A DNA stretch of 32,000 nt from Halorhodospira halophila SL1 (GTDB lineage Bacteria; Pseudomonadota; Gammaproteobacteria; Nitrococcales; Halorhodospiraceae): positions 570,001-602,000 of the forward strand of contig NC_008789.1 in the NCBI RefSeq assembly GCF_000015585.1, read 5' to 3'. The notes under the pieces are model-generated. The model was not told the origin of the DNA. It made no database searches and saw nothing but the letters and a program-made list of their open reading frames with translations. Made by a program: the position numbers and the translations under genes. Each line of letters starts with the position of its first letter. Position 1 is the stretch's first letter. This document shows, piece after piece, positions 1-24,637 of this stretch.

Positions 1-51
1 CTGCCGCTGCGGCGGACGGGAGTGGCAGTCAAAGTTCTGTCGACCGGCCAA

Positions 52-71
52 GGCGGCAACCGTTTGCCGCT
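52..71. promoter_or_regulatory. 20-bp inverted repeat GGCGGCA-ACCGTT-TGCCGCt, with two more TTGCCGC copies at 64-70 and 85-91 and TGCCGCC at 106-112, in the intergenic DNA downstream of fleQ
   Basis: Read directly. It has the same architecture as the sites at 4001-4020 and 22700-22719. It lies between the fleQ stop (113) and whatever gene lies off the left edge of the window. Confidence 0.4.
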
Positions 72-1583: not shown

Positions 1584-1614
1584 AAAATCGTCACACTCGG
1601 CGGCAAGGAATTGC

Positions 1615-1962
1615 CTAGTCGGAATAACGCGAGTAGGCGTCGCGGGCCTCGCGCTGGTGGTGTTCATCGCGGGACGCGGCGCCAAGGCGATCCCGCTCGG
1701 CCTCCATCCAGGCTCGGACGGCCCGATCGCACTCCAGGGATTCGGCGAGGGCCTGACGAGCCAGATCGGCGCCGGGGTGGTTCGGGTCCTCGGGCAGCTG
1801 CCGGGCCTGCTTCTCGCGCAGTCCGTTGCGCTCCATGACCCCGTCCCAGTCGCCGGCTTCGGCGCAGCGGCGCATCTGCCGGGACAGCTCGCGGAGGCGC
1901 CGAGCGGTCACGGCCACCGCCGCCCGCTCCTCGCCGCCTCCGGAGCCCTCGCCGCCGGCCAC
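1615..1962 (-). CDS. fliT: Putative FliT-like flagellar export chaperone (called by position)
   Basis: This is a 115-aa ORF that looks helical and charged. It begins 12 nt after the fliS stop with a GTG preceded by AGGAGG at 7-nt spacing. That is the position fliT occupies after fliD-fliS. I recognise no strong sequence motif. Confidence 0.45.
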   Translation of the reverse strand: MAGGEGSGGGEERAAVAVTARRLRELSRQMRRCAEAGDWDGVMERNGLREKQARQLPEDPNHPGADLARQALAESLECDRAVRAWMEAERDRLGAASRDEHHQREARDAYSRYSD

Positions 1963-2517: not shown

Positions 2518-3948
2518 TTAATCCCTGCTGTTCATGGCAGCCAGGCGCTGCTCAAGAAACTCCGAGGTCTGATTGAGCTCAGCCACCCTCGAGTCCATGC
2601 GCGAGAACTCGCTCCGCAGCTGGTCCTCGCGCCGCTCCATGCGCCGATCCAGGCGCTCGCGATCATCGGCGATGCGGTCGAGCCGACTCTCGACCCCGTC
2701 GGTCCGCATGTCGATCACGCTATCCCGGCCGAGGGCGTTCTCAAGCACCCCCTCAAGCCGCGACATCACCCCGCTCTCCGGGTCGGTCATCATGCGCGTC
2801 ACCAGCTCTGAGTGCTCACCGACCATCTGCTGCATGCGCTCACCATCAAGATCCAGGGTGCCGTCACGGTTGGTGCGCACACCGAGGTCGCCGAGGGAGG
2901 AAATGGGCGCCCCGTCCAGCGCCTCCACTGGTTCGTTGACGGCCCGACTGAGCTGCGAGAGGAGGTTACGCAGGGTGTGATCCCCCTGCAGCGGACCCGC
3001 CTTCTCGGCCTCGGGGTCGTAGTCGGAGAGCTGGTTGAGCTGGGCCCGCACCTGGTTGAACGAGTCCACCAGACGCTGGATGTTCTCTTCGGCCAGCCCC
3101 GTCTGTTGCTCGATGGAGACGCGGCTGCGGCCCTCCTCCTTGAGGCTGAGGGTGGCGCCCTCGATGGCCCCCTCGATGCGGTTCTCGGGTCGCGTGATCT
3201 GCATGCCGTCGATGGTCACAACGGCATCACTGGCTGGCCGGACCTCCTGAAAGGCGCCCATGGGCTCGCCACTCTGGGGGTCCGCGACGTTGTACTGCAG
3301 AGCTGACAGGTTGCCCTGATCGTCCTCCGGGTCCTGCTCGGCACGGATCTGGGCGATGGCGTTCGCCCGGCCGGTCTGCTCGGTGGCGATCGCCAGTCGC
3401 GGCCCCGCCCCGTCGTCCACCACCGAGGCGCGAAGCCCTTCGGCCTGGGCGTTGATGGCGTCGCGGATGCCGAGCAGCGTGCCCGACTCCTCGTCGATGG
3501 TCACTGCCTGCTCGTTGCCCTCGCCGTCGGTGATCACCAGCCGGCCAGTGCCCACCGCATCGGCGCTGTCCTCGAAGGCACCGCTGGCCGTGGCGAGGCG
3601 CTGGGTCCGCGCCAGCTGCTCGACCTCCACGTCGTACTGACCGGGGCGCGCCTCTTCGCTGGCCGAGACCGCCGCCACACCGGCATTGCTCGACTCGGCG
3701 TCGATGCCGGAGTAGGCACTCGGATCCCCCAACCCCTGCACGGCCTCCTGCAGTTCGCCGATGGTCCCGCGCATCTGCCCGAGGGCCTCGAGCTTCTCCT
3801 GGAGCTCTTGCTCACGCCGATCCAAGCGCTGCTCGGTGGGAGCCCGCTCGGCTCGCACTAGATCCTGGACCATCTTGTTGGTATCGATGCCGGAGCCGAC
3901 GTCCATCTGGCTCGGCATATTCGGCATCTGATCCAGTGGTGAGACCAT
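2518..3948 (-). CDS. fliD: Flagellar filament cap protein FliD
   Basis: The 476-aa protein has FliD-like N- and C-terminal coiled-coil regions (IDTNKMVQDLVRAERAPTEQRLDRREQELQEKL ... RMERREDQLRSEFSRMDSRVAELNQTSEFLEQRL). Its position is flaG-fliD-fliS. Confidence 0.9.
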   Translation of the reverse strand: MVSPLDQMPNMPSQMDVGSGIDTNKMVQDLVRAERAPTEQRLDRREQELQEKLEALGQMRGTIGELQEAVQGLGDPSAYSGIDAESSNAGVAAVSASEEARPGQYDVEVEQLARTQRLATASGAFEDSADAVGTGRLVITDGEGNEQAVTIDEESGTLLGIRDAINAQAEGLRASVVDDGAGPRLAIATEQTGRANAIAQIRAEQDPEDDQGNLSALQYNVADPQSGEPMGAFQEVRPASDAVVTIDGMQITRPENRIEGAIEGATLSLKEEGRSRVSIEQQTGLAEENIQRLVDSFNQVRAQLNQLSDYDPEAEKAGPLQGDHTLRNLLSQLSRAVNEPVEALDGAPISSLGDLGVRTNRDGTLDLDGERMQQMVGEHSELVTRMMTDPESGVMSRLEGVLENALGRDSVIDMRTDGVESRLDRIADDRERLDRRMERREDQLRSEFSRMDSRVAELNQTSEFLEQRLAAMNSRD

Positions 3949-4025: not shown

Positions 4026-4439
4026 TCAGGCCTCCCCGTTGAAGAGCAGCCCCTGCACCTCGCGCATGCGCGCAGCGATGGCCAGCATCTCTTCCGGGGG
4101 GATCTGGCGCACCACGTCGTCGGTACCGCGGACGTAGACCGTGACCACCGTCTTGCCGGTGGCGTCGTCGACCCGGAATTCCAGGTCGCGGCCCACCTGC
4201 TGCATGAACTTCTCCATGCGCTCGACCGCCTTGGCCAGCGCCTCCGGGTCATCCGCCTTGAAGTGCTCCAGTGGCTCGAGCTCCCTCAGCGGCACCCGGG
4301 ACCCGTCCTCGACCTCGGCGGCGGCAATGGGCGCTGCCGAGTCCTGCTCGGGAGCGAGGCGCCTGCCCTCCTGATGCTCCGTCGGCCGCGACCAGGCCAT
4401 GCTGCTGGCCACGGAGCTCACCTTGTGCATTTCACTCAT
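4026..4439 (-). CDS. flaG: Flagellar protein FlaG
   Basis: The C-terminal FlaG domain is present (LEFRVDDATGKTVVTVYVRGTDDVVRQIPPEEMLAIAARM). The ATG is preceded by GGGAGG. It lies between the flagellin gene and fliD. Confidence 0.8.
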   Translation of the reverse strand: MSEMHKVSSVASSMAWSRPTEHQEGRRLAPEQDSAAPIAAAEVEDGSRVPLRELEPLEHFKADDPEALAKAVERMEKFMQQVGRDLEFRVDDATGKTVVTVYVRGTDDVVRQIPPEEMLAIAARMREVQGLLFNGEA

Positions 4440-4514: not shown

Positions 4515-5993
4515 TTACTGCTGCAACAGCTGTGCCACTTGCTGCGGGATCTCGTTGGCTTGACCCAGCACCGAGGTGCCCGCCTGCTGCAGGATCTGCG
4601 TCCTGGTCATCTCGGCCGTCTCCTCGGCGAAGTCGGCATCCAGGATCCGCGAGCGGGATGCGCTCAGGTTCTCCGAGGAGATGTTCAGATTGTTGATCGT
4701 GGCATCGAACCGGCTCTGGATCGCACCCAGATCAGCCCGGGTGTTGTTGATCTGCTGCAGGGCGAAGTCCACCGCCACGATGGTATCCGACGCAGTCTCC
4801 CGGGTGCGCACATCCACCGGATCCACGCCACCCACCGTGTACGCCTCAGCCTGAAGATCCTCATAGTCGCCGCCGGGCTGCCAGTTCTTGAGCCCGATCG
4901 CCCCGAGGTCGGCGTCGTCGTCCCCCTCCAGCGGATCGACCCGGAGCTCACCACCGATCTCCGTGGACAGGGTGATGCCCCGCTCGACAATCAGCCCGGT
5001 GCTCTCCTCGTCGGTGCGATCCAGGCCCTGTCCGACCGTGGTGCCACCGACGGAGAGCGCTCCCTCGGCATCGTCCGAGATGTACTCCAGCTCGAAGTCG
5101 CTGTTGGAGACGAAGGACCAGCCGTTCTCGCCGTTCTCCAGACGCACCCCGGTCTCCGAGGCCTGGTCGTTGACCCGAGCGGCAAAGTCGCTCATGTCCT
5201 CCATGTCGCCATCGAGCTCAATGGCGTGGTCGTTGATCCGCAGCTGGGCACGCTCCCCTTCCGCGAGACCGTCGAACTCCACCGCCTGGGTCTCGGCACG
5301 GTCGGCGCGCATGGCGGAGACCCCGGTCTCGGCCTGACGCTCGTTGATCTCGCTCGCCACGTCGTTAAGCTCGCGGGCGTCGCCGAGATCGATTTCCTGG
5401 CCGTTGACCTGCAGGCCGCTCGGGAGCTGCACTCCCTCGCCGCCGGCGGTCTGGTGCACGGCACGACCCTCGGCCACATTGGCCCCGAGGTTCTCGGCAC
5501 GCACGTCAACGCCCCCGGCATTGATCGTCTGCCCGCGGTTCGGCCCCACCTGGAAGACCAGCTCGCGCAGGGTGCCGTTGAGCACGTTCTGCTGGTTGAA
5601 CTGGGTGCTCTCGGCGATCCGGCCGATCTCCTGCACGGCAGCCTGCACCTCGCGGTCCAGAGCGGCACGGTCCGACGGCGAGTTGGTGTCGTTGGCCGAC
5701 TGCACCGCCAGCTCGCGGACCCGCTGGAGCAGATTGCTCATCTCTTCCATGGCGCCTTCCGCCGTCTGGGCAAACGAGATGCCGTCATTCGCGTTGCGGG
5801 CGGCCTGATCCATGCCGTTGATCTGGCCGGTGAAGCGCTCACTGATCGCCAGACCGGCGGCATCGTCCCGGGCGCTGTTGATACGCAGCCCCGAGGAGAG
5901 CCGCTCCAGGGCCACCTCCTGGTCGCCCCGGGAAGAATTCAAGTGCCGTTGCGCGTTCAGCGATGCAACGTTGGTGTTGATCACCTGTGCCAT
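4515..5993 (-). CDS. fliC: Flagellin (copy 1, 492 aa)
   Basis: The N-terminus is the canonical MAQVINTNVASLNAQRHL...RLSSGLRINSARDDAAGLAISERF. The C-terminus is LGAIQSRFDATINNLNISSENLSASRSRILDADFAEETAEMTRTQILQQAGTSVLGQAN. The track ORF begins 5 codons upstream (MRRRV); I take the ATG at 5993, which follows GAGGAG. Confidence 0.95.
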   Translation of the reverse strand: MAQVINTNVASLNAQRHLNSSRGDQEVALERLSSGLRINSARDDAAGLAISERFTGQINGMDQAARNANDGISFAQTAEGAMEEMSNLLQRVRELAVQSANDTNSPSDRAALDREVQAAVQEIGRIAESTQFNQQNVLNGTLRELVFQVGPNRGQTINAGGVDVRAENLGANVAEGRAVHQTAGGEGVQLPSGLQVNGQEIDLGDARELNDVASEINERQAETGVSAMRADRAETQAVEFDGLAEGERAQLRINDHAIELDGDMEDMSDFAARVNDQASETGVRLENGENGWSFVSNSDFELEYISDDAEGALSVGGTTVGQGLDRTDEESTGLIVERGITLSTEIGGELRVDPLEGDDDADLGAIGLKNWQPGGDYEDLQAEAYTVGGVDPVDVRTRETASDTIVAVDFALQQINNTRADLGAIQSRFDATINNLNISSENLSASRSRILDADFAEETAEMTRTQILQQAGTSVLGQANEIPQQVAQLLQQ

Positions 5994-6095
5994 GACCCGT
6001 CTCCTCACGTCTGACGCCGTATCGACGCCGTTTCGCTGACCCCAGCGCGAGCGACCCTGTTCGCTTGGGCTCGCGTCTCGCGCTCTTGCCCAAAC

Positions 6096-6122
6096 GTATC
6101 GGCGCTCCCTGACAAAGCTTTA
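6096..6122 (-). promoter_or_regulatory. Sigma-28 (FliA) promoter of flagellin 1: TAAAGCTT-N11-GCCGATAC
   Basis: The minus strand reads TAAAGCTT (6122-6115), an 11-nt spacer, then GCCGATAC (6103-6096). The enterobacterial/pseudomonad consensus is TAAAGTTT-N11-GCCGATAA. It lies about 100 nt upstream of the ATG. Confidence 0.8.
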
Positions 6123-6276
6123 ACGGTCCCGTTTGCTGGAAACGGCAACCGCCGGGTCAGTCCGCGTGAGTTCAGGTCATGCTCCGGATGTCACCTCCGA
6201 GTTTCTTTCGATCGGTTCAGGAGTAATCCTGGCCTGCTTTGAGCTGGGGAGACGGCTCGGGGTCAGCGAGCCGAAA

Positions 6277-6307
6277 GCGGAGCCCGGGGGGTCAAGCCGG
6301 GCTCCGC
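6277..6307 (-). terminator. Hairpin just downstream of flagellin 2, probably a terminator
   Basis: An 11-bp perfect GC-rich stem (GCGGAGCCCGG / CCGGGCTCCGC) encloses a 9-nt loop. It begins 9 nt after the fliC2 stop and is followed on the minus strand by a short TTTCGG tract. Confidence 0.55.
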
Positions 6308-6315
6308 CTCGGGTC

Positions 6316-7725
6316 TTACTGCAGCAGGGTCAGGACGTTCTGCGGTGCCTCGTTGGCCTGGGCCAGGACCGAGGTGCCGGCCTGCTGGAGCACCTGGGCG
6401 CGGGTCATGGCGGCGGTCTCGGCGGCGAAGTCCGCATCCAGAATCCGGGAACGGGAGGCTTCCATGTTCTCGGAGACGTTCTGCAGGTTGCTGGTGGTGG
6501 CCTCGAAGCGGTTCTGCACCGCACCCAGGTCGGCCCGGGCGTCGTTGATCTGCCCCAGGGCGAAGTCCACCGTGCGGATGGCGTCATCGGCATCGGTGCG
6601 GGTGGCCACGCTCAGCGCATCCGGCCCGCTGACCCGGTGACGGCTCATGTCCATCTGCTCGTCGCTCATGCCCAGAGCCGCCAGTGTGTCCGCATCCCCA
6701 TTGACATCCAGGCGCTGCCCCAGATCGGTGGAGAGCTGGACACCCCGCTCGAAGCGCATCCCCGATTCTTCAGCCTCGAGACCCAGATCACCGATCGGGC
6801 TGTTGTCACCCGGCTCGATGCGGAAGTCGGACTCGGAGACGAAGCGCACCTGGTCATCGCCGACCATCTCGGCCCGCACACCCGTGTTGCCCGAGGCCGC
6901 GTTCACCTCGTCGACGAACTCACCCACCCCGGCGTCCTCGCCCACACTGACGGTGGTGCCGTTGATCTCCAGGCTGGAGCCGCCGTCGTTGTTGAAGTCG
7001 AACGCCTCGGTGGTAGCGCGGTCAGCCCGGAAGGCCGTCACGCCCGTGGCACGGGACTGGGCGTTGATGGCGTCCATGGCGTCGGAGACGCTCCGCGAGC
7101 CGCTGACATCAACATCCAGCCCGTTGATGTTGATCGAGCCGTCCAGGTCGAGATCGCCGTAGTCACCGTTCTCGTCCAGGGCCCGCTGCACGGCCTGCCC
7201 CTCACCGATCTCGGCACCCAGGTTGTGGCCGCGCACATCGACACCGCCGGTGTTGATGCTCTGCGCACGGTTGGCGCCCACCTGGAAGACCAGCTCATCC
7301 AGCGAGCCGTCCAGGATGTTCTGGTTGTTGAACTGGGTGCTGGAGGCGATCCGGTCGATCTCCTGCACCGCCTGCTGCACCTCGGCCTCCAGGGCCTGAC
7401 GGTCTTCGGCCGTGTTGGTGTCGTTGGCCGACTGCACCGCCAGCTCACGGACCCGTTGCAGGAGGTTGCCCATCTCCTCCATGGCCCCCTCGGCGGTCTG
7501 GGCGTAGGAGATGCCGTCGTTGGCGTTGCGCTCCGCCTGGTTCATGCCACCGATCTGCGAGGTGAAGCGCTCGCTGATCGCCAGGCCGGCGGCGTCGTCG
7601 GCCGCGGAGTTGATCCGCTGCCCCGAGGAGAGCCGCTCCAGGGCCTGCTGCTGCTCGGCCTGGCTGCTGCTCAGGTGCCGCTGACCGGTCAGGGACGCAA
7701 TGTTGGTGTTGATGACCTGTGCCAT
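6316..7725 (-). CDS. fliC: Flagellin (copy 2, 469 aa)
   Basis: The termini are MAQVINTNIASLTGQRHL...RLSSGQRINSAADDAAGLAISERF and LGAVQNRFEATTSNLQNVSENMEASRSRILDADFAAETAAMTRAQVLQQAGTSVLAQAN. The ATG is preceded by AAGGAG. The central region has diverged from copy 1 but is recognisably homologous. Confidence 0.95.
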   Translation of the reverse strand: MAQVINTNIASLTGQRHLSSSQAEQQQALERLSSGQRINSAADDAAGLAISERFTSQIGGMNQAERNANDGISYAQTAEGAMEEMGNLLQRVRELAVQSANDTNTAEDRQALEAEVQQAVQEIDRIASSTQFNNQNILDGSLDELVFQVGANRAQSINTGGVDVRGHNLGAEIGEGQAVQRALDENGDYGDLDLDGSININGLDVDVSGSRSVSDAMDAINAQSRATGVTAFRADRATTEAFDFNNDGGSSLEINGTTVSVGEDAGVGEFVDEVNAASGNTGVRAEMVGDDQVRFVSESDFRIEPGDNSPIGDLGLEAEESGMRFERGVQLSTDLGQRLDVNGDADTLAALGMSDEQMDMSRHRVSGPDALSVATRTDADDAIRTVDFALGQINDARADLGAVQNRFEATTSNLQNVSENMEASRSRILDADFAAETAAMTRAQVLQQAGTSVLAQANEAPQNVLTLLQ

Positions 7726-7815
7726 TGCCTTTGCTCCTTATACTCCGCTGTTCGGAAGGCCCGGGCGGCCGGTTGTTGCCGCCTGTCGGTACCCATTCTT
7801 TCGCCTTCACTGAGC

Positions 7816-7842
7816 GTATCGGCGCTAGGCGGCAAGGCTTTA
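7816..7842 (-). promoter_or_regulatory. Sigma-28 (FliA) promoter of flagellin 2: TAAAGCCT-N11-GCCGATAC
   Basis: The minus strand reads TAAAGCCT (7842-7835), the 11-nt spacer TGCCGCCTAGC, then GCCGATAC (7823-7816). The spacer itself contains one copy of the TGCCGCC repeat. Confidence 0.8.
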
Positions 7843-8124
7843 CCCCTGGGCGGCAAAAATTTTCCCAAGCGGCAACCGCAGCGGCAAGACAGCGGCAACA
7901 CTCGGCCATCGGCGTGCAACCCGTTGGCGGCTGTAGGGTTGCGAACGGCGGCCGGTTGCCGGCGGAGGCATGGCCACGGTCACCGAGGGAGCCGGACGGA
8001 TCCCGGGAGTTCGACAGGCGGCAACAACGGGGCGCGTTGGGCGGGCAAAAAAATGCCGGGAAGGCAACCCTTCCCGGCAATCAAGCGCCGATCAATCGGC
8101 TGGAGGGAGCCGCCGAGGCGGCAA
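7828..8124. repeat. Array of same-orientation RGCGGCAA octamers upstream of fliC2
   Basis: Perfect plus-strand copies start at 7828, 7849, 7868, 7880, 7891, 8017 and 8117. The spacings among the first five are 21, 19, 12 and 11 nt. There is also a one-base-insertion variant (GGCGGGCAA, 8040-8048). All lie in the 440-nt gap between the fliC2 start and the TonB-dependent receptor stop. Confidence 0.7.
8047..8078 (-). terminator. Rho-independent terminator of the TonB-dependent receptor gene
   Basis: The minus strand reads GCCGGGAAGG-GTTG-CCTTCCCGGC, a 10-bp perfect stem with a 4-nt loop, followed immediately by ATTTTTTT. It begins 88 nt after the receptor stop codon. Confidence 0.85.
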
Positions 8125-8165
8125 GCATGAGCACCCCTGAGTAGCGGGTGACCCGTGACGTGAGA

Positions 8166-10460
8166 TCAGAAGTCGACGCGCATGCCGGCCCAGTAGGTCC
8201 GCGGCGCGCCGGGACGCGCCCCCGCCGGACGGTGGTGCGCGACATAGGTTTCGTCGGTGAGGTTCTCGATACTGCCGAGCAACCGCACGTTATCTTTCAA
8301 CTGATAGTGGGCGGAGAGGTCGAACAGCCAGCGGGCGTCCATCTTCAGATCACTGTAATCGCGATCGGCCAGGGCACGCGTCTCCGAGACGTAATTGGCA
8401 TTCAGGTTGACGCGCCAGTCGGCCTGGCCGACACCGGCACTCAGGTTAAGTTGGTGCTCGGGGATCTCCGGCAGACGGTCGCCTTCGCGGGCGTTGGCCA
8501 GCTGGTTGGGGCCGTCGTCGATATCCTGCCGGAACTCGCTGTCGGTCCAGGTGTACCCGATACGAACCGGTAGCTGAACGTCGAGGCCCTGACTTTCCCC
8601 GAGGTCGTGAAGCCACAGCGCCTCGAGGCCCCAGATGTGGACCTCACCGGCAGAGACGAGATCGTCTTCAGTCTCGCAGGCACCGCCCACATTGGTGCAC
8701 TCGTAGTTGATGTTGGAGTAGTCGTTGAAGAAGCCGATCACCTCGGCCTGCGTGTACTGGTCGTTGAAACGGAAACCAGCCTCGTAGTTAACGCTGCGCT
8801 CCTCGTCGGCATCCGGGTTGGCGCCGGACGGGGCGAAACCGCGGTGCACTCCGCCAAGCACGCTCCACTGATCATCGATGGCGTAGGTGGCGCCGATACC
8901 GGGGACCCAGACCCGATAGGTGTTGGAGTAGGAGCCGTCCGCATCGAGATTGGCGCGCCCCAGGTCAGCCCACTGCTTGCGCTCCATGTCGATGTGCTCG
9001 TAACGCACGCCGGGGACCAGGGTCCACGAACCGCGCTCCATGGTGTTCTGCACGTGGAAGGCGTAAGCCTCGGCGGAGGTAACCCGGTTGGTGGTCTCAC
9101 CCGGGTTCTCCTGCTCGTCGAGCACCATGTAGCCATCGTCGGTCATCTCGAACGAGTCCTGCCACTGCTCCCGGTCCTCTTCGTCCTCGTGGTAGCGGAA
9201 GCCCACCTCCATGTCGTGGTCCCAGCCGAAGGCCTCGAAGAGATGACCCACCTGCACCTGGATGCCCTGGGCGTAGTATTCGCGGTTGTTGGCGCGGACA
9301 TTGCCGCGGGCATCGTCATCAATGCTCAGATCCCCGTCATAGGCAGTATCGAAACCGCCGAGGATCCACGCCAGCTCGTCCTCATGATCACCCGGGTCGC
9401 GGAGGATGTCGGAGATGCCCGTAAAATCACCGGTACCGTCACCATCCACCTCATGCAGCTTGTACCAGTTGCGCACGGTGTCGGTGCGGTAGACGGTGGT
9501 GGTGACGTCGGTGTCCACCGTGGGCTGGATGTAGTGGCGGACCTGATAGAGGTCGTTCTCGGTGTTGATCTCGTCGAGCTGTGAGCCGGCGTAGCGCCGG
9601 TGCGGGTTGTCGTCGAAGTCCCCGGGAAGCAGGCCGAGGTAGGTGTCGTAGATAGTGCGCCGGTCGCGGGCGTACTTGAACTCGAGTTCCTGATAGACCT
9701 CGGCAGTAGGATCGCTGGCCCATAGGCCCTTAGCGACGAAGTTGTTGCGATCGAAGCCCGTGTTCGGCACCGGGTTGTTCGGCTTGTTGGATTGATCCCC
9801 GGAGAGCGGGTGATCGAGCTCCTTGAAGCCGTCGCTCTGCTCCGTGTAACTCTCCAGCAACCACCCGAACTGCCCCTCACGCCCGCCGATGTGGGCGTGG
9901 GTTCGCCGCCCATTGTCCGACCCCAGACGCCCTTCGACCTTGCCGGAGGTCTCCTGCGGGATCGGGGTGGAGGTCATGTTCAGGGCGCCGCCCACGGTGT
10001 AGGGGCCGTGCTTGATCGCACTCGAGCCCTTGCGCACCTCCACGTTGTCCATGCGCCCCATGGGCGGGAAGTAGTAGGCCGCCGGGGCGGCGTAGGGCGC
10101 CGGCGAAGCCGTCAGCACCCCGTCCTCCATAACCGTGATGCGGCCGTTTCGCTCCGGGTTCACGCCGCGCATGCTGATATGCGGGAACTGGCCGTAGCCC
10201 TCCTCCTCGGCAACATTGACGCCAGGGATCTGGCGCAGGATGCGGTGGGGGTCGCTGTATCCCTGCCGATCGATGTCTTCGCGGCTGAGCACCTGGGCCG
10301 ATCCGGCGGTATCCTGCACCCGGTCCGGGCCGCCGGTGATCATGATCCGATCGAGCAGTCGTGAGGACCCGTCGTCGGCATCGGCCTGGGCGGCGCCCAG
10401 GGTCCCTCCGGCCATGACTGCAGCAGCAGCAACCCCCCAAGGTTTCACGGTCTGGTTCAT
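8166..10460 (-). CDS. TonB-dependent outer-membrane receptor (siderophore or ferric-citrate-like class)
   Basis: The signal peptide is MNQTVKPWGVAAAAVMAGGTLGAAQA|DADD. The plug region reads LLDRIMITGG...AQVLSREDIDRQG...RILRQIPGVNV...ISMRGV...VMEDGV...VEVRKGSSAIKHGPYTVGGALNM. A long beta-barrel follows, ending in the terminal motif YWAGMRVDF. I take the ATG at 10460, which follows a GGGGGGG SD, rather than the GTG at 10487. Confidence 0.9.
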   Translation of the reverse strand: MNQTVKPWGVAAAAVMAGGTLGAAQADADDGSSRLLDRIMITGGPDRVQDTAGSAQVLSREDIDRQGYSDPHRILRQIPGVNVAEEEGYGQFPHISMRGVNPERNGRITVMEDGVLTASPAPYAAPAAYYFPPMGRMDNVEVRKGSSAIKHGPYTVGGALNMTSTPIPQETSGKVEGRLGSDNGRRTHAHIGGREGQFGWLLESYTEQSDGFKELDHPLSGDQSNKPNNPVPNTGFDRNNFVAKGLWASDPTAEVYQELEFKYARDRRTIYDTYLGLLPGDFDDNPHRRYAGSQLDEINTENDLYQVRHYIQPTVDTDVTTTVYRTDTVRNWYKLHEVDGDGTGDFTGISDILRDPGDHEDELAWILGGFDTAYDGDLSIDDDARGNVRANNREYYAQGIQVQVGHLFEAFGWDHDMEVGFRYHEDEEDREQWQDSFEMTDDGYMVLDEQENPGETTNRVTSAEAYAFHVQNTMERGSWTLVPGVRYEHIDMERKQWADLGRANLDADGSYSNTYRVWVPGIGATYAIDDQWSVLGGVHRGFAPSGANPDADEERSVNYEAGFRFNDQYTQAEVIGFFNDYSNINYECTNVGGACETEDDLVSAGEVHIWGLEALWLHDLGESQGLDVQLPVRIGYTWTDSEFRQDIDDGPNQLANAREGDRLPEIPEHQLNLSAGVGQADWRVNLNANYVSETRALADRDYSDLKMDARWLFDLSAHYQLKDNVRLLGSIENLTDETYVAHHRPAGARPGAPRTYWAGMRVDF

Positions 10461-10505
10461 GCCCCCCCCTATGCGTGGCGCTGTCACTGTGATGTGCTTT
10501 TGCGC

Positions 10506-10534
10506 ATTCTAGTGAGAACGATTCGCGTTTCCAA
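10506..10534 (-). promoter_or_regulatory. Sigma-70-like promoter of the receptor gene, TTGGAA-N17-TAGAAT, overlapped by a weak Fur-box-like sequence
   Basis: On the minus strand the -35 TTGGAA is at 10534-10529, the spacer is 17 nt, and the -10 TAGAAT is at 10511-10506. The spacer and -10 region (GCGAATCGTTCTCACTAGA) match the 19-bp Fur consensus GATAATGATAATCATTATC at only about 11 of 19 positions. Confidence 0.5.
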
Positions 10535-10706
10535 TACACAAGAGGGCCTCAGGCGGGCTTTCCCCATCGCTATTCTCGATAACCAGGGCGCCCAGGATTG
10601 AGCCAGCGCAAATCAATGGCGGGAACGGAGGCGGTGGGGTCGTTGAGGGCGGTGTACCCGGACGCCGTGGGAGACGCCCGGGAGCGGGTTGGGTCGGTGT
10701 GCTGGT

Positions 10707-11438
10707 TTACCAGGCGTAGCCGACGCCGAGGTTCATGGCAGCTTCGGTAAACTCGACTTCATGGGCACCAGAGAAGAGGTCCTCATCCCCGTACTGGTAG
10801 AGGTTGCCCTCGACACGCATCATCACCGGCAGCTGGGTGGAGCGGTACTCGAGCCCCACCCCGACACCGATGCCAACGAACGTGGTGTCATCCGACGCCT
10901 GATCGCCGCCACTCTCGGCCTGGACTTCCAGGTTCCGCACCTGATAGCTGAGCCTGCCGTAGAGCATGCTGGTGCCCTCCTCGAGGACCCCGCCAAGCCG
11001 GACCGAAAGGCCGTACCCGTCGCTCACCTGCGCCGTCAGGCCTTCCGCAGCCTCGAGTGCGTCGTCGGCCATGGCATGGCCCAGGGCGTAGTTGATCTCG
11101 GCACCGTAATAGAGCGACTGGGATTGCAGGCCGGCGCCGACAAACAGCTCGCCCCGGGCACCCACCGCATCGGTGCTGAAGCTCAGGGTGGCGTCACCCT
11201 CGTCAAAAGAGACGTCGTCGACGTCAAACCCGGAGGCGCCTACTTCCATGGCCACCGAGGGCAGGGTCGCTGCAGCATGGATGCCGAAGTAGGGCCCCTC
11301 GAACGGCAGGGTGCGGTCGAAGAATCCGGTGGTGTTCTGCTGGCCGAACTGCGCGCTGGCCAGGGACGGCGCAACGATCCCTGCAACCGCGGCCAGCGTG
11401 ATGGCCCCTCTCCTTACACCGATACCCGGTCGCCGCAT
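10707..11438 (-). CDS. Small outer-membrane beta-barrel protein (OmpA-like / OMP_b-brl porin family), 243 aa
   Basis: The signal peptide is MRRPGIGVRRGAITLAAVAGIVAPSLASA|QF. The body has the alternating amphipathic beta-strand pattern (FVGIGVGVGLEY, VMMRVEGNLYQY) and ends in an aromatic residue (NLGVGYAW). The ATG at 11438 is preceded by GAGAGG. The track ORF extends to 11819 but overlaps the end of flgL, and the extra residues are Pro/Arg/Ser junk. Confidence 0.75.
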   Translation of the reverse strand: MRRPGIGVRRGAITLAAVAGIVAPSLASAQFGQQNTTGFFDRTLPFEGPYFGIHAAATLPSVAMEVGASGFDVDDVSFDEGDATLSFSTDAVGARGELFVGAGLQSQSLYYGAEINYALGHAMADDALEAAEGLTAQVSDGYGLSVRLGGVLEEGTSMLYGRLSYQVRNLEVQAESGGDQASDDTTFVGIGVGVGLEYRSTQLPVMMRVEGNLYQYGDEDLFSGAHEVEFTEAAMNLGVGYAW

Positions 11439-11488
11439 GGCGTTGGCCTCTCTGTCCACAATTGAGTGTCTCTTACGATAGGGGTCGG

Positions 11489-11559: not shown

Positions 11560-12822
11560 TCAGATGTAGTCGAACAAAGAGAGGTTCTGCACGCGGCCGA
11601 AGGTGGACTGGGCCGCCTCGAGGCCGGTGAGCTCTTGGTTGAAGCGGCCGGTGGCCTCGGCGTAGTCGAGGTCGCGCTCGTCGGAGGTGGCCTGCTTGAG
11701 ATCGATGATCGCCGCCTCGTTGCTGGCTTTCTCGCTGTCCAGGGTAGACAGGCGGGCGCCGATCTCGGAGCGGACCCGGTAGGTGTTCTCCATGGCCAGG
11801 TCGAGGTCGCCCAGGGCACGGTCAGCGGCGTTGCGGAAGTCGGGGCCCTCGCCCTCCTTGAGGGCCCCGATCAGCTCGTTGACGGTGGCGAAGATCGACT
11901 GCGACCGACTGCCGGTGATGGTGAAGAAATCGCCGTCACCGTCCTCCCCGGGCTCCGGATGGCCCTCGATCTTCACCCGCACCCCGTCGTCGACCTCGAT
12001 GGTCGCCCCCGGCTCGTAGAGCGGGGCATCCTCCACCGCCGGTGGGCCACCGTCCTCAGTGCCCACCCACTCCCAGGCGTTCTCGTCCTCAGGATTGTCG
12101 GTGCGCTGCACGGCGTAGCGAGTGTTACCGTCCTCGTCCTCGGCGAAGCGGATGCGGTACTGCTCGGCGGTGGGGCTGCGCACCTTGCCGTCGACGACGC
12201 TGACCACGCCGGTTCCGCGGTTGCCCTCGCCCTGGAAGGCCTGGTACTGGCCGTTGCCATCGGGGACCTTCATGAAGGCGTCGAAGCCGGAGTGGTCGAC
12301 CCCGATCTGCCGGCCGGGGCCGATGCGCACCTCGCGGCTGTTCTGGTCGCCGTGGTAGGTCACGTGGCCGTCGGTCCCCATGTTGAACGGCTGGGTGCGG
12401 GTGCGTGATCCGGAGAAGAGGTACTCGCCGTTGCCGTCGCGGCTGTTGCCCAGCTCCACCAGCTGCTTGTAGCGCTCCTCGATCTCCGAGGCGATGTAGC
12501 TCCGGGTGCTGGCATCCTGGGTCCCGTTGGCCGCCTGCACGGTGAGCTCACGGATCCGCTGCAGCTCGTTGCCGGCCTGCTCCAGGGCGGACTCGGACAT
12601 GGACAGCCGGGTGCGCGCCAGGTCGCCGTTGCGGTTGAACCGCTCCAACGACTCGGTGGCCCGCTTGAGGTCGAGGGTGCGCGCCGCCGAGGTGGGATCA
12701 TCCGACGGCCGCAGCACCCGGCGCCCACTGGAGAGCTGGGTCTGGGTGTCGTTGATCTCGCTCTGCTGGCCGGTCATGTTCTGAACGGCCGTGTTCTGCA
12801 TGTGACTCGTGGATACGCGCAC
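11560..12822 (-). CDS. flgL: Flagellar hook-filament junction protein FlgL (HAP3)
   Basis: The N-terminus is flagellin-like (MRVSTSHMQN...LSSGRRVLRPSDDPTSAARTLDL...ELQRIRELTVQAANGT) and the C-terminus is EIGARLSTLDS...LDYAEATGRFNQELTGLEAAQSTFGRVQNLSLFDYI. The GTG start is 10 nt after the flgK stop. Confidence 0.9.
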   Translation of the reverse strand: MRVSTSHMQNTAVQNMTGQQSEINDTQTQLSSGRRVLRPSDDPTSAARTLDLKRATESLERFNRNGDLARTRLSMSESALEQAGNELQRIRELTVQAANGTQDASTRSYIASEIEERYKQLVELGNSRDGNGEYLFSGSRTRTQPFNMGTDGHVTYHGDQNSREVRIGPGRQIGVDHSGFDAFMKVPDGNGQYQAFQGEGNRGTGVVSVVDGKVRSPTAEQYRIRFAEDEDGNTRYAVQRTDNPEDENAWEWVGTEDGGPPAVEDAPLYEPGATIEVDDGVRVKIEGHPEPGEDGDGDFFTITGSRSQSIFATVNELIGALKEGEGPDFRNAADRALGDLDLAMENTYRVRSEIGARLSTLDSEKASNEAAIIDLKQATSDERDLDYAEATGRFNQELTGLEAAQSTFGRVQNLSLFDYI

Positions 12823-12832
12823 GGCTCACCCC

Positions 12833-14890: not shown

Positions 14891-14932
14891 AGATTCCGCC
14901 TCGTTGGGGCCCGCGGGCCCACCCTGCCCTAT

Positions 14933-15919
14933 CTAGCCTTTCGGCACGGAATCGGAAATCTTGAGGGTCTCGCCTCCAATCCGCACCCCGTGACTGTCGT
15001 CGCCGAGCTCCATGATCCGCTGCAGCTTCTCGGCGTACTGCGGATCGGTGGCGTACCCGGCCCGCTGCAGGGCCTCGACATACTGCCCGGCGTCCTCGCC
15101 AACCTCCAGCGCCTCGCGATAGCGCGGGTTGCGCTCGAGGAAGTCGGCGTAGTCGGCGAAGCTGTCCGCCACCGACTCGTAGGCGCGGAAGTCGGCCATC
15201 TCGCGCTGGGGGATGCCGTTGCGGTACTCGAGGGTGGGCACCCGTACGGCATCGCCCTGCCAATCCGCCGAGTGGGCCTTGATGTTAAACAGGTTGTTGG
15301 AGCTGCGCCCGTCGCTGTCGGCCACCATGTGCTGCCCCCAGCCGGTCTCCAGGGCTGCCTGGGCCACCAGGGCCACCGCCGGCACCCCCAGGCGCTCGGC
15401 GGTCTCCTTGGCCGCCGGGGTGATCTCCTCGACGAAGGCCTGCGGGCTCGACCAGCCGGCCCCCTTGCCGCCGAGACCGCCACCACGGCCCGTCTCGTCC
15501 CCCTCTTCGGCGGCCGCTGCCCGCTCTTCGTCGTCGGGCTGGACGGGCACCGCCGAGTGGCGGTAGTCGGCGACATCCCGGGGCAGCCCCTGGGTGCGGT
15601 CGGTCTCGAAGCCGGCGTTCTCGCGCAGCTGCTCCTCGATCATCGGGGCCAGGCCCATGCCCCCGCCCTCGCGGGACATCTGCACCGCCATCTGCCGATC
15701 GAACAGATCGCGGTAGGTCTCCTCGGCGTTGCCGCCGAAGATCTCGTCGCCCGGGGTCGCCTGGCGCATCTGGCCGAGCATCATCTCGACGAAGACCGCC
15801 TCGAACTGCCGCGCCACCTCGGCGAGGTCCTCCTCGCTGGGGTTGCGCGTCATCGAGCGAAGCTGCTGCAGCCCCTGGGGTTCAAGGGCGTTACCAAGGG
15901 CGCCGCCGGCGTTGTGCAT
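14933..15919 (-). CDS. flgJ: Flagellar rod-assembly protein and peptidoglycan hydrolase FlgJ
   Basis: The N-terminal rod-binding region reads VARQFEAVFVEMMLGQMR. A low-complexity linker joins it to a C-terminal glucosaminidase domain (VALVAQAALETGWGQH...NNLFNIKA...YRAYESVADSFADYADFL...AGYATDPQYAEKL). Confidence 0.9.
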   Translation of the reverse strand: MHNAGGALGNALEPQGLQQLRSMTRNPSEEDLAEVARQFEAVFVEMMLGQMRQATPGDEIFGGNAEETYRDLFDRQMAVQMSREGGGMGLAPMIEEQLRENAGFETDRTQGLPRDVADYRHSAVPVQPDDEERAAAAEEGDETGRGGGLGGKGAGWSSPQAFVEEITPAAKETAERLGVPAVALVAQAALETGWGQHMVADSDGRSSNNLFNIKAHSADWQGDAVRVPTLEYRNGIPQREMADFRAYESVADSFADYADFLERNPRYREALEVGEDAGQYVEALQRAGYATDPQYAEKLQRIMELGDDSHGVRIGGETLKISDSVPKG

Positions 15920-15929
15920 GGTGCCCCTC

Positions 15930-17045: not shown

Positions 17046-17095
17046 AGCCTCGCGTCCTCCCGTGCGCGCCGCTTTGAGGCGGCCGCGACGATCAG

Positions 17096-17782: not shown

Positions 17783-17792
17783 CTCGGTCCCC

Positions 17793-18578: not shown

Positions 18579-18631
18579 GGCGTCACCTCATTGTTGTTCG
18601 GTTATCGCGGTGCCGGACGGAGCGTGCCGCC

Positions 18632-19372: not shown

Positions 19373-19418
19373 ACGCCCTGCCCCGTTCTACCCCGCATCA
19401 GCGGGAGGAAGACCCGCC

Positions 19419-20675: not shown

Positions 20676-20711
20676 GGCTAATCTCCTCGATCCCCGCTGC
20701 TCTTGTTCGTC

Positions 20712-21593: not shown

Positions 21594-21610
21594 CGTCGCT
21601 CCTCCCGGTA

Positions 21611-22180: not shown

Positions 22181-22186
22181 ATCGGA

Positions 22187-22633: not shown

Positions 22634-22649
22634 TGCAGTTCGCGTGCCA
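22634..22649 (-). promoter_or_regulatory. Sigma-54 promoter of the flgB operon: TGGCAC-GCGAA-CTGCA
   Basis: The minus strand reads TGGCACGCGAACTGCA, with the canonical GG-N10-GC spacing. The consensus is TGGCAC-N5-TTGCA. It lies about 40 nt upstream of the flgB ATG. Confidence 0.75.
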
Positions 22650-22679: not shown

Positions 22680-22728
22680 GGCGGAACACGGCGGCAATAG
22701 GCGGCACACCTTTGCCGCCCGGCGGCAG
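22680..22728. promoter_or_regulatory. Phased GGCGGNAN repeats and the inverted repeat GGCGGCA-CACCTT-TGCCGCC upstream of the flgB sigma-54 promoter; candidate enhancer (UAS)
   Basis: On the plus strand the copies are GGCGGAAC at 22680, GGCGGCAA at 22690, GGCGGCAC at 22700 and GGCGGCAG at 22721, with inverted TGCCGCC at 22713-22719. The first three are exactly 10 nt apart. They lie 30-80 nt upstream of the -24 element, inside the 144-nt cheR-flgB gap. Confidence 0.5.
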
Positions 22729-24621: not shown

Positions 24622-24637
24622 CGGCATGCCCTTTGCA
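24622..24637 (+). promoter_or_regulatory. Sigma-54-type promoter upstream of flgA: cGGCAT-GCCCT-TTGCA
   Basis: On the plus strand GG is at 24623-24624 and GC at 24635-24636, which is the correct GG-N10-GC spacing, and the -12 element TTGCA is perfect. It lies in the divergent cheV/flgA intergenic region. Confidence 0.6.

Follow-up and report, generated by a model that had tools for sequence, protein, structure and literature searches.

In the textbook hierarchy of polar flagellates, flagellin genes are controlled either by sigma-28 and FlgM alone or by sigma-54 and a second-tier activator. NtrC enhancers consist of inverted-repeat sites upstream of sigma-54 promoters, and in Caulobacter flbD lies in the fliF operon. 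Adjacent in-phase sites of NtrC-type enhancers nucleate the oligomer needed for activity, according to the passage of PMC6504787 that cites Porter et al. 1993. In Pseudomonas, a sigma-54 flagellar promoter may have its FleQ box on the upstream or the downstream side (10.1101/2021.08.29.457346). FleQ also represses or activates non-sigma-54 promoters, and it acts at biofilm-matrix promoters, possibly with RpoD (PMC8125075). Caulobacter FlbD is kinase-less; from ftr sites it turns on late sigma-54 promoters, and by binding at the non-sigma-54 early fliF promoter it represses that promoter (PMC3930126, PMC4083442, PMC7064773), the latter through ftr4 (PMC3930126, PMC4083442). In Vibrio cholerae, the second-tier activator FlrC acts at flaA and other class III promoters, and its sites can lie downstream of the transcription start (PMC6504787). 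In the Rhodobacter sphaeroides fla1 system, which is of gammaproteobacterial origin, FleQ alone binds DNA for class II and class III promoters, and fliC is FliA-dependent (PMC7277832).

We analysed a 32,000-nucleotide stretch of the Halorhodospira halophila SL1 genome (hereafter the window), which holds a flagellar cluster with two flagellin genes, fliC1 and fliC2. An initial annotation had described an array of RGCGGCAA octamers upstream of and inside the fliC2 sigma-28 promoter and had not recognised it as a described system. The array does have described counterparts, since its box resembles the sites of FleQ-family sigma-54 activators in its GNCAA-N4-TTGNC geometry (PMC8125075). With some confidence, we read the octamers as half-sites of a box for a flagellar NtrC-family enhancer-binding protein, which at fliC2 would surround a sigma-28 promoter, and FleQ is the first candidate for this protein. 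Our literature search found no paper on Halorhodospira flagellar regulation, and a search with the motif strings matched only primers.

The box shares with the Pseudomonas FleQ box (GTCaNTAAAtTGAC in P. aeruginosa; GTCAaAAAAtTGAC in P. putida) a 14-bp palindrome of two 5-bp arms and a 4-bp spacer. Its second arm base is G/C here and T/A there, although the recognition helix is identical, its arms reach 7 nt (GCGGCAA), and full boxes are combined with strings of same-orientation half-sites ~11 nt apart. In P. putida, fliC is described as FliA-type and no FleQ site is reported for it among the FleQ-dependent promoters consulted, whereas here the sites lie on a sigma-28 flagellin promoter. Unlike NtrC enhancers, the array has tandem half-sites wrapped around a sigma-28 promoter. 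The gene for a second activator (EBP2) lies just beyond the window start and heads the fliE-fliF operon. This is the operon logic of R. sphaeroides fla1, where fleQ is followed by a second activator heading fliEFGHIJ (PMC7277832). However, that activator, FleT, has neither a receiver nor a DNA-binding domain (PMC3162934, PMC11655674); EBP2 carries an HTH of its own (SSRTLRYKLARMR) as well as a degenerate receiver without the acidic pocket and the conserved Lys. EBP2 has no adjacent kinase, and its best full-length family match is FlbD (NF050807). By these regulator features it would be a kinase-less candidate activator like FlbD, although the match is far under the equivalog cut-off (415 versus 750 bits). 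Sigma-28 is absent from Caulobacter, where every flagellin depends on sigma-54. The proposed singling out of one flagellin among several for activator control recalls V. cholerae, with the differences that flaA is sigma-54-dependent where fliC2 has a sigma-28 promoter, and that FlrC has a cognate kinase, FlrB.

All seven plus-strand octamers reported at the locus (starts 7828, 7849, 7868, 7880, 7891, 8017 and 8117) are present, and the distances between successive starts (21, 19, 12 and 11 nt) are as described. The initial annotation had missed an eighth perfect octamer in the fliC2 5'UTR (7776-7783, opposite strand). Over both strands, the window contains 18 RGCGGCAA matches, against 3.14 ± 1.69 in dinucleotide shuffles (shuffle maximum 8). 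No intergenic 7-mer of the window is more enriched than the heptamer GCGGCAA/TTGCCGC: 2,625 intergenic nt contain 14 copies and 25,446 coding nt contain 7 (~19-fold). Its intergenic copies elsewhere in the window are all at flagellar promoters. The initial annotation had asked whether the octamer is abundant in unrelated intergenic DNA; there are 0 copies in the window's non-flagellar intergenic DNA.

The heptamer TTGCCGC (core TTGCC) is one half of a palindrome, GGCAA-N4-TTGCC, extended to GCGGCAA-N4-TTGCCGC, and the octamers are thus half-sites. In the window, boxes with at most one mismatch lie exclusively in flagellar-cluster intergenic DNA (6/6, with 0 coding), compared with 0.14 expected from shuffles. 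The 14-bp dyad is perfect at 55 and 1602 and has one mismatch at 7831, 7852 and 22703. The length of the box spacer is fixed in all relatives and in three metagenomic loci described below (L110, L171 and L199). For the close comparison we used the H. halophila-group genomes, namely the window, L081 and L083, together with the more distant L084. The fliC2 features are listed here, with predicted positions relative to a transcription start taken as ~7810 from the consensus, so that these positions carry an error of ~2 nt.

7816..7842, minus strand: fliC2 sigma-28 promoter, with TAAAG (7838-7842), spacer and GCCGATAC (7816-7823)
7831..7844, minus strand: box A, GGTAA-AGCC-TTGCC with 1 mismatch, ~-33 to -20 (centre ~-26), over the -35 element and half the spacer
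7852..7865, minus strand: box B, GGAAA-ATTT-TTGCC with 1 mismatch, ~-54 to -41 (centre ~-47), including the octamer that starts at 7849
7869..7875, minus strand: half-site 3, TTGCCGC, centre ~-61; invariant in the window, L081 and L083
7881..7887, minus strand: half-site 4, TTGCCGC, centre ~-73; kept in L083, degenerate (TGTGCCA) in L081
7892..7898, minus strand: half-site 5, TTGCCGC, centre ~-84; at the same position in L083, degenerate (TTGCCGA) in L081
7767..7783, minus strand: box C in the 5'UTR, GGCAA-CAAC-CGGCC with 2 mismatches, ~+31 to +44 (centre ~+37), including the opposite-orientation octamer 7776-7783
8012..8028, minus strand: distal site with heptamer 8018-8024, ~-210, just downstream of the terminator of a receptor gene

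The sigma-28 promoter had been read correctly (TAAAGCCTTGCCGCCTAGCGCCGATAC at 7842..7816, minus strand). It conforms to the sigma-28 (FliA) pattern of TAAAG, ~15 nt and GCCGATAA upstream of a flagellin gene, and its -35 and -10 columns are invariant in an alignment of 7 genomes. One octamer copy lies inside this promoter, as had been claimed: the 7828 copy is the spacer heptamer. It forms the right half of box A, and the left half includes the -35 TAAAG. Since the -35 element makes up its left half, box A may be partly coincidental. In the window, L081, L083 and L001 the spacer always has TTGCCGC, and in more distant relatives it has TTGCCGC or TTKCCGS; the heptamer could be kept for promoter-intrinsic reasons. 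All sites except the distal one share the same helical phase. An A/T tract at ~-50 was considered as an UP element; since L003, L004 and L056 carry full GGCAA boxes there, it is better read as box B's spacer and left arm. In relatives, box C reads GGCAA-N4-TCGCC, and both of its arms are invariant in 7 genomes. An RNA hairpin at the 7776 copy of box C was not supported, as the arms have no covariation, the folding z-score is -0.43 and Rfam gave no match.

When the region is aligned across related genomes, as the initial annotation had suggested, the five promoter-proximal heptamers keep their register across the window, L081 and L083. In these three genomes, 27/35 heptamer columns (77%) are invariant, compared with 17/42 linker columns (40%; Fisher p = 0.0014). 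The array behaves as protein sites on one helix face would, in keeping with the earlier proposal. Across 7 genomes, conservation holds for box B, for the half-site in the spacer and for box C. For box B the invariant columns are GG.AA...TT.CCG, and the conservation reaches the family level. The fliC2 region of L084 has only degenerate versions, TTACCGC and TTTCCGG. The distal site has counterparts in the same relative place in relatives (two heptamers in L081, TTGCCGG in L083), and in the window it is one arm of a 24-nt inverted repeat with 7765-7788.

The same box is found at three further flagellar promoters of the cluster, with the following features.

28..41, minus strand: second conserved box, GACAG-AACT-TTGAC, Pseudomonas-FleQ-box-like or IHF-like, adjoining the palindrome of the next line
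53..70, minus strand: perfect palindrome GCGGCAA-ACGG-TTGCCGC, upstream of the EBP2-fliE operon
1555-1583: fleQ sigma-70-type promoter, TTGACG-17-TAAACT
1599..1615, minus strand: perfect box GGCAA-TTCC-TTGCC(GCC), 16 nt upstream of the fleQ -35
22634..22649, minus strand: flgB sigma-54 promoter TGGCACGCGAACTGCA, with the array ending 30 nt upstream
22680..22728, minus strand: flgB upstream activating sequence, with CTGCCGCC, GCGGCAA-AGGT-GTGCCGC, TTGCCGC and TTCCGCC in order, at spacings of ~21, 11 and 10

Beside the EBP2-fliE palindrome there is a further GCGGCAA at 85-91, and in L081-L084 the palindrome lies ~100-130 nt upstream of a consensus sigma-54 promoter, TGGCACGCCCCTTGCT. Four genomes share an unchanged right half, TTGAC, in the adjoining GACAG-AACT-TTGAC box; a GACAG-N4-TTGAC-like box also overlaps the fleQ -35. 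The box at the fleQ promoter is kept in L083 and has 1 mismatch in L081. The flgB box and its extra half-sites are also present in four further Halorhodospira genomes, despite diverged flanks. Enhancers of sigma-54 promoters are expected within ~50-200 nt of a -24/-12 element (TGGCAC-N5-TTGC), and the sites at flgB, EBP2-fliE, L110, L171 and L199 lie near such promoters. At the sigma-54 promoters of flgB and EBP2-fliE, one full box and two to four tandem half-sites ~11 nt apart would make up a classical upstream activating sequence. The fliC2 array does not have this relation to a sigma-54 promoter, as its sole sigma-54-like match, TTGGGAAAATTTTTGCC, is not kept in L081 or L083.

The box recurs at flagellar promoters in Halorhodospira and several other gammaproteobacterial lineages. 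A blind metagenome scan for three tandem heptamers gave at least 120 matches, at least 20 of them non-coding, and three flagellar cases are among the 20 non-coding matches listed. In two of these, L110 and L171, a palindrome and 2-3 tandem half-sites are followed by a sigma-54 promoter and then flgB (FlgB ~42% identical); in L199, the array precedes a flagellin-glycosylation island driven by sigma-54. Tandem heptamers are not diagnostic by themselves, because 100 of the 120 scan matches listed are unrelated repeats of 12-nt period in coding sequence. Boxes are 8-fold enriched (0.50 versus 0.06 per kb) over the 450 nt that precede flagellin genes (80 loci). L056, from an unrelated gammaproteobacterial family, carries a perfect GCGGCAA-TAAG-TTGCCGC at the box B equivalent of a sigma-28 flagellin promoter. 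It thereby repeats the fliC2 layout, a full box just upstream of the -35 together with a spacer half-site. At L078, an Ectothiorhodospiraceae flagellin gene, the box lies ~75 nt upstream of a good sigma-54-type promoter, and there is no sigma-28 promoter. A "perfect box" at L033 was discarded, as it is merely a terminator hairpin.

The box is probably read by a FleQ-family regulator, judging from its geometry and from the proteins encoded nearby. FleQ is encoded at 113-1537 and has the domains FleQ, Sigma54_activat and HTH_8; its recognition helix, RRTTLVEK, matches that of P. aeruginosa FleQ (8p53) at every residue. Near the L171 array, an activator is encoded whose FleQ-type HTH has QRTTLIEK. 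The boxes do not match the consensus GTCaNTAAAtTGAC, as position 2 and the mirror position are different. Against GTCAA-N4-TTGAC, the two perfect boxes (55 and 1602) have 2 mismatches, and no intergenic site in the window comes within 1 mismatch of it. A dimeric helix-turn-helix protein would not usually bind half-sites in the same orientation, which counts against the favoured reading.

It is possible, although we think it the less probable reading, that the sites are real and that their binder is EBP2, a FlbD/FleR/FlrC-like protein, in place of FleQ; this differs from the favoured explanation in protein identity only. FleQ would bind the TTGAC-type boxes and turn on the EBP2-fliE operon, and EBP2 on the GGCAA boxes would activate flgB, exert feedback at its own promoter and at fleQ, and act on fliC2 as a repressor or modulator in a FlbD-like manner. 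The conserved GACAG-N4-TTGAC box beside the EBP2 palindrome and the similar box over the fleQ -35, which FleQ may bind, fit this scheme, as do a FleQ recognition helix that is that of a GTCAA-N4-TTGAC binder and the presence of GGCAA-type sites only at flgB. So do the kinase-less, FlbD-like character of EBP2, its own HTH, the FlrC dependence of flgB-class genes in Vibrio (PMC6504787, PMC7064773), the dual role of FlbD as activator and repressor (PMC3930126) and the FlrC sites downstream of the start, a place occupied here by box C (PMC6504787). However, the EBP2-fliE promoter must fire before EBP2 exists, yet the best palindrome is found there; moreover, the box has the geometry of the FleQ box, and the regulator encoded near the L171 array has a FleQ-type HTH. 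We regard it as improbable that the array is the leftover enhancer of a former sigma-54 flagellin promoter, taken over by sigma-28 and now of little or no function, or that its sites still serve a weak sigma-54 promoter of this strain (TTGGGAAAATTTTTGCC, ~7866..7850). L078 has the arrangement expected of such an ancestor, Vibrio flagellins are divided between sigma-54 and sigma-28 control (PMC6504787), and box B in the window has a GG-N10-GC spacing like that of a -24/-12 element. This spacing is found in the window only and is one base short in L081 and L083, where the sigma-54-like match is not conserved, and the cryptic promoter was rejected; a second weak GG-N10-GC in the 5'UTR is missing from L001 and L002. 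The heptamers are also more constrained than the linkers in three genomes, and the box-plus-spacer layout recurs on the sigma-28 promoter of the unrelated L056, which argues for current function.

The five same-orientation heptamers, 11-21 nt apart, raise the question of a binder from another family. OmpR/PhoB-type proteins bind direct repeats with ~10-11 bp periodicity, and a winged-helix response regulator of this kind could occupy the array, with the palindromes elsewhere incidental. The tandem spacing is shared by flgB here, L110 and L171, but every sigma-54 case includes a complete inverted pair whose halves always stand 4 nt apart, as is characteristic of dimeric helix-turn-helix proteins, the arrays are located where enhancer-binding proteins act, and the 32-kb flagellar cluster contains no gene for such a regulator, which makes this reading a poor prospect. 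Neutral local tandem duplication by replication slippage in G+C-rich intergenic DNA is already disfavoured, and we consider it very unlikely. Tandem Repeats Finder does report an 11-nt repeat of 2.8 copies at 7868-7899, copy number varies among genomes, and the distal units are alike within a genome (TTGCCGCT in the window, TTGCCGCC in L083). Slippage is at odds with five positions in register in three genomes, with linkers that diverge while heptamers do not, and with the same heptamer at four other flagellar promoters and in distant lineages. Least credible of all is an invertible phase-variation switch, in which the promoter would flip between the 24-nt inverted repeats 7765-7788 and 8012-8035. 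The arms are 92% complementary and bracket the whole promoter, but we found no recombinase domain in the ORFs scanned (all long flagellar-cluster ORFs included) and no inverted repeat of at least 12 nt in this region of L081 and L083. The promoter has one orientation in all three assemblies, and each arm simply copies a box-containing segment; this fimS/hin-like switch was therefore rejected.

The fliC1 promoter (6122..6096) has the same -35 and -10 elements as fliC2 and no heptamer, as had been noted, and fliC1 is without a box in all four genomes (the window, L081, L083 and L084). The heptamer is not a general sigma-28 promoter feature, since the sigma-28 promoters of both fliC1 and flgM lack it. 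The initial annotation had proposed a device that regulates the two flagellins differently. The array indeed separates fliC2 from fliC1 in the window, L081 and L083, but the motif is not private to fliC2, as it is also found at flgB, EBP2-fliE and fleQ. The site cluster probably gates fliC2 separately from fliC1. An "imperfect copy" reported at 6141-6148 upstream of fliC1 turns out to be part of a separate element.

6129-6145: inverted repeat CCGTTT-N5-AAACGG upstream of fliC1, with a compensatory change in relatives

We then propose a mechanistic model that keeps FleQ as the first-ranked binder and the FlbD/FleR-like EBP2 as the second. An oligomeric activator would bind the fliC2 sites cooperatively. 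Because an enhancer-binding ATPase cannot remodel sigma-28 RNA polymerase, it would act at fliC2 as a conventional operator-bound regulator. The most likely outcome is that fliC2 would be held off, or delayed, during the activity of the upper hierarchy tiers, because one box covers the -35 element. fliC1, with its different upstream element, would escape such control. We put forward only tentatively that FleQ or EBP2 directly gates a sigma-28-dependent flagellin promoter via boxes over the -35 and flanking the start. The arrangement at L078 suggests that the sites outlasted a change of the promoter from sigma-54 to sigma-28 and found new use as operators.

If this model holds, the top or middle tier of the hierarchy would be wired onto one of two flagellin paralogs, bypassing the usual FlgM/FliA-only logic of late genes, and one flagellin of the pair would have a sigma-28 promoter plus a full set of activator boxes. 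It is tempting to speculate that this offers a direct route to paralog-specific flagellin control and hence to altered filament composition. The locus would also be a natural example of enhancer-site re-use upon a sigma-factor change at a promoter. It opens no new mechanism category; what is unusual is a box of known type around a sigma-28 promoter instead of upstream of a sigma-54 promoter. GGCAA-N4-TTGCC is a candidate motif for a flagellar regulator in Ectothiorhodospiraceae/Halorhodospiraceae and some other Gammaproteobacteria, and it could allow sequence-based prediction of flagellar regulons in little-studied halophilic phototrophs.

The remaining observations concern the surroundings of the array. 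No hidden gene spans it on either strand, with no Pfam match and a frame broken in relatives; the ORFs that overlap it are not genes. Rfam covariance models gave no match at E <= 1 on either strand of 5900-8300, and an exact look-up of the fliC2 protein returned no record. Two copies assigned to the array by the initial annotation do not belong with it. The octamer at 8117 is not conserved, as both close relatives read CTGCCGCC there; it sits within a small GCCGCC/GGCGGC hairpin directly 3' of the stop codon of the receptor gene and is probably incidental. At 8040-8048, the "one-base-insertion variant" is accounted for by the T-tract side of an intrinsic terminator and lies outside the array.

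8043..8079, minus strand: intrinsic terminator of the TonB-dependent receptor gene, with an 11-bp stem (8079-8054) and TTTTTTT

This terminator lies 87 nt past the receptor stop, has the G+C-rich hairpin and T run typical of its class, and is kept in L081 and L083.

The window is a flagellar gene cluster of Halorhodospira halophila. Its most enriched intergenic 7-mer is GCGGCAA/TTGCCGC, which occurs 14 times in 2,625 intergenic nt and 7 times in 25,446 nt of coding sequence. Apart from the fliC2 region, three places between genes carry it (53-70, 1599-1615 and 22680-22728). Genes and sites are listed below; positions relative to fliC2 are counted from an assumed start at about 7810, deduced from the -10 element.

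113-1537, minus: fleQ
1974-2402, minus: fliS
2518-3948, minus: fliD
4026-4439, minus: flaG
4515-5993, minus: fliC1
6316-7725, minus: fliC2
8166-10487, minus: TonB-dependent receptor gene
about 10707-11450, minus: outer-membrane protein gene (the listed ORF extends to 11819, overlapping flgL)
11560-22594, minus: flgL to flgB
beyond flgB, minus: cheR and cheV
after these, plus: flgA, flgM and flgN
53-70: perfect palindrome GCGGCAA-ACGG-TTGCCGC, downstream of fleQ and therefore upstream of the next gene
1599-1615: perfect box GGCAA-TTCC-TTGCC, with the -35 of a sigma-70-type fleQ promoter 16 nt downstream
22680-22728: string CTGCCGCC / GCGGCAA-AGGT-GTGCCGC / TTGCCGC / TTCCGCC, upstream of flgB
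distal heptamer at fliC2: about -210
three half-sites at fliC2: centres about -84, -73 and -61
7852-7865: box B at the fliC2 promoter, GGAAA-ATTT-TTGCC, centre -47.5
7831-7844: box A, GGTAA-AGCC-TTGCC, left arm including the -35 TAAAG, centre -26.5
7767..7783, minus: box C, GGCAA-CAAC-CGGCC (GGCAA-N4-TCGCC in relatives), centre +37.5

A textbook sigma-54 promoter, TGGCACGCGAACTGCA, follows the flgB string at a distance of 30 nt. With at most one mismatch, GGCAA-N4-TTGCC occurs six times in the annotated 28 kb, always in intergenic and never in coding DNA, against 0.14 in shuffles. Boxes A and B of fliC2 account for two of the six, and one other is the terminator tail, probably a chance match. 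Our results support the motif well as an element at the level of the flagellar regulon. A probable flgA sigma-54 promoter, CGGCATGCCCTTTGCA, lies at 24622-24637 (+) and a probable flgM sigma-28 promoter, TCAAGT-N13-GCCGATAG, at 25513-25539 (+). No GGCAA box with at most one mismatch was found near either, and no heptamer at the sigma-28-type flgM promoter.

The initial annotation had described an array of RGCGGCAA octamers at fliC2. All seven copies (starting at 7828, 7849, 7868, 7880, 7891, 8017 and 8117) are present on one strand, the promoter-proximal five are spaced 21, 19, 12 and 11 nt apart as described, and the first copy indeed sits in the spacer of the sigma-28 promoter TAAAGCCTTGCCGCCTAGCGCCGATAC (7842..7816, minus). 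The fliC2 5'UTR holds an eighth perfect octamer that points the other way (7776-7783), and the window holds 18 octamer matches versus 3.14 expected. The supposed variant at 8040-8048 turned out to be the T-tract of the receptor gene's intrinsic terminator, and the copy at 8117 does not hold up in the two close relatives, which both read CTGCCGCC there.

The comparison drew on contigs of three relatives that share the window's gene order: L081 (another H. halophila assembly), L083 (from a soda-lake sediment metagenome) and L084 (a Halorhodospira MAG that is more distant). FleQ of the window shares 92% identity with its counterpart in another H. halophila assembly. Conservation of the repeats, which the annotation had proposed to check by alignment, is borne out: the five promoter-proximal heptamers are in register in the window, L081 and L083, and the intervening bases differ. 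Invariant columns in these three make up 27 of 35 heptamer positions versus 17 of 42 linker positions (Fisher p = 0.0014); the two outermost heptamers are degenerate in L081. A seven-genome alignment of fliC2 that extends to Ectothiorhodospiraceae shows islands without any change at box B (GG.AA...TT.CCG), at TAAAG, at the spacer TT.CCG, at GCCGA.A and over a segment of the 5'UTR. The array is real and conserved.

In all three relatives, fleQ is followed by the gene for EBP2, a second sigma-54 activator, which heads the fliEFGHIJ operon (in L081 at 11642-13084, just beyond window position 1). A palindrome-type site lies about 100-130 nt upstream of the consensus sigma-54 promoter of this operon; the box is perfect in L081 and L083 and has one mismatch in L084. 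Upstream of flgB in four further Halorhodospira (L205-L208), a GGCAA-N4-TTGCC box, extra half-sites and a sigma-54 promoter are each present in DNA that has otherwise diverged. GCGGCAA/TTGCCGC copies also occur about 180 nt within the fliK coding sequence (L081:19248-19277; L083:17037), downstream of a sigma-54-like fliK promoter (TGGTTCGGATCTTGCA in L081), and may form a downstream enhancer.

A metagenome scan with TTGCCGC-N3-5-TTGCCGC-N3-5-TTGCCGC matched at least 120 loci. In 100 of the 120 listed, the match lies within long open frames and represents unrelated coding repeats; three of the 20 listed non-coding matches are flagellar (L110, L171 and L199). In L110 and L171, a tandem row of three or four heptamers ends in a GCGGCAA-N4-TTGCCGC palindrome, of which the last heptamer is part; a sigma-54 promoter and then flgB come next, and the flgB product is about 42% identical to FlgB of the window. 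In L199 the array is upstream of a sigma-54 promoter driving a flagellin-glycosylation island of glycosyltransferase, methyltransferase and dehydratase genes, which adjoins the gene of a 1,104-residue flagellin (L199:2170-9737). Across 80 flagellin loci fetched with FliC2, box density is 0.50 per kb in the 450 nt upstream versus 0.06 elsewhere (8-fold). In L056 (Rariloculaceae), a sigma-28 TAAAG is preceded at 3 nt by a perfect GCGGCAA-TAAG-TTGCCGC and followed by TTGCCGC in the promoter spacer, the layout of fliC2; in L078 (Ectothiorhodospiraceae), the flagellin gene has a strong sigma-54-type promoter with a box about 75 nt upstream. The box of L033 was discounted as a terminator hairpin.

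From the dyad symmetry, the fixed spacer and the location ahead of sigma-54 promoters, the predicted binder is an enhancer-binding protein of the NtrC family, and the array is best described as a cluster of predicted sites of the FleQ-box-like type. The Pseudomonas FleQ boxes GTCaNTAAAtTGAC and GTCAaAAAAtTGAC read GTCAA-N4-TTGAC (PMC8125075), compared with GGCAA-N4-TTGCC here, so the two agree in spacer length and at four of five bases in the arm. The recognition helix of the window's FleQ, RRTTLVEK, is identical to that of P. aeruginosa FleQ in PDB 8p53 (an activator gene near the L171 array encodes QRTTLIEK), and the best palindrome is located at the promoter of EBP2's own operon. In R. sphaeroides fla1, fleT-fliEFGHIJ is activated by FleQ (PMC7277832), and in the Pseudomonas and Vibrio hierarchies the master regulator drives second-tier regulator genes (PMC7064773); by this analogy, the EBP2-operon promoter must be fired by FleQ. 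Box likeness, recognition helix and palindrome thus favour FleQ as the tentative binder, at slightly below an even chance.

EBP2 would be a serious alternative, though on the unlikely side, because the second arm base differs from the Pseudomonas box despite the identical FleQ helix, and because a separate Pseudomonas-like box, GACAG-AACT-TTGAC (28-41), lies beside the palindrome, with a similar one over the fleQ -35. EBP2 possesses its own HTH (SSRTLRYKLARMR), unlike FleT, whose operon layout it shares. Its receiver domain is degenerate, lacking the acidic pocket and the conserved lysine; no histidine kinase adjoins it, and its best family match, Caulobacter FlbD, is below the cut-off. The two Pseudomonas-like boxes (the second, GACGA-TTTT-TTGAC, at about 1570-1583) form a type with an invariant TTGAC right arm that is nearer the Pseudomonas FleQ box than the GGCAA boxes are. 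The one at 28-41 is conserved and also loosely fits an IHF site.

Enhancer-binding ATPases work on the sigma-54 holoenzyme only, and so at the sigma-28 promoter of fliC2 such a protein could only be an ordinary DNA-bound regulator. Boxes A and B are 21 bp apart and boxes A and C 64 bp, which places all the sites but the distal heptamer on the same helix face. Judging from site placement, occupancy would most likely repress fliC2 or delay its onset, since box A takes in the -35 and half of the spacer, and box C is downstream of the start. DNA bridged between sites on either side of the start may add to the effect. Precedents are known for FleQ (biofilm-matrix promoters; PMC8125075), FlbD (the fliF promoter; PMC3930126, PMC4083442) and FlrC (sites downstream of the start; PMC6504787). 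A real alternative would be activation, exerted from the half-sites and box B. Two points are unusual here: the sites surround the sigma-28 promoter of a flagellin gene, and half-sites in tandem accompany the palindromes.

Other readings of the array fared worse. Neutral tandem duplication is contradicted by the footprint and by regulon-wide and cross-lineage recurrence. The box resembles the sigma-54 -24/-12 consensus (TGGCAC-N5-TTGC) with a GG-GC distance one base short, and box B attains the exact spacing in the window only, via an extra G; a cryptic sigma-54 promoter there is not conserved and was rejected. The promoter of fliC2 is flanked by a 24-nt inverted repeat (7765-7788 / 8012-8035, 22/24 complementary). 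L081 and L083 lack this repeat, and the ORFs scanned, all long ORFs of the flagellar cluster among them, encode no recombinase domain, which makes an invertible switch very unlikely; since both arms carry a box-like GGCAA-CAAC segment, the distal one appears to be a recent, inverted duplicate of the 5'UTR element. Hidden ORFs across the array have no family and are not preserved. An RNA hairpin at the 5'UTR octamer was rejected, with both arms invariant, no covariation and unremarkable folding energy, and no Rfam family matched the 5'UTR copy. Conserved in this 5'UTR (7726-7812, minus; seven genomes), likewise without covariation, are GAAGGC, GGG, GGCGGCAA-N6-CGCCGCC and GGCCTTC; the constraint may act on DNA (box C) or on mRNA.

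Between flgL and fliC2 (8166-11450) stand the inserted TonB-dependent receptor gene and the outer-membrane beta-barrel gene. The receptor is found in L081 and L083 and is absent from L084, which marks it as a lineage-specific insertion at a known split point of flagellar clusters.

The two flagellins share 55% identity and have diverged in their central domains. As the annotation had noted, the fliC1 promoter has the same -35 and -10 elements as fliC2 and lacks the motif; none of four genomes (window, L081, L083, L084) has a box there. The presumed imperfect copy at 6141-6148 is an arm of a different inverted repeat, CCGTTT-CCAGC-AAACGG (6129-6145, minus), which is conserved directly upstream of the -35, at the promoter position of box B in fliC2. 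In L081 and L083 it reads CCGTTG-N5-CAACGG, both arms having changed in a compensatory way, and another regulator may bind there. The proposal of differential regulation stands in that fliC1, having no box and another conserved repeat at the same place, is probably controlled separately from fliC2. The fliC1 leader (5994-6095, minus; roughly 100 nt) had no Rfam match. It is nearly invariant in four Halorhodospira genomes including the distant L084, has paired segments TTTGGGC...GCCCAAG with changes within the enclosed stem, and could be a structured regulatory leader.
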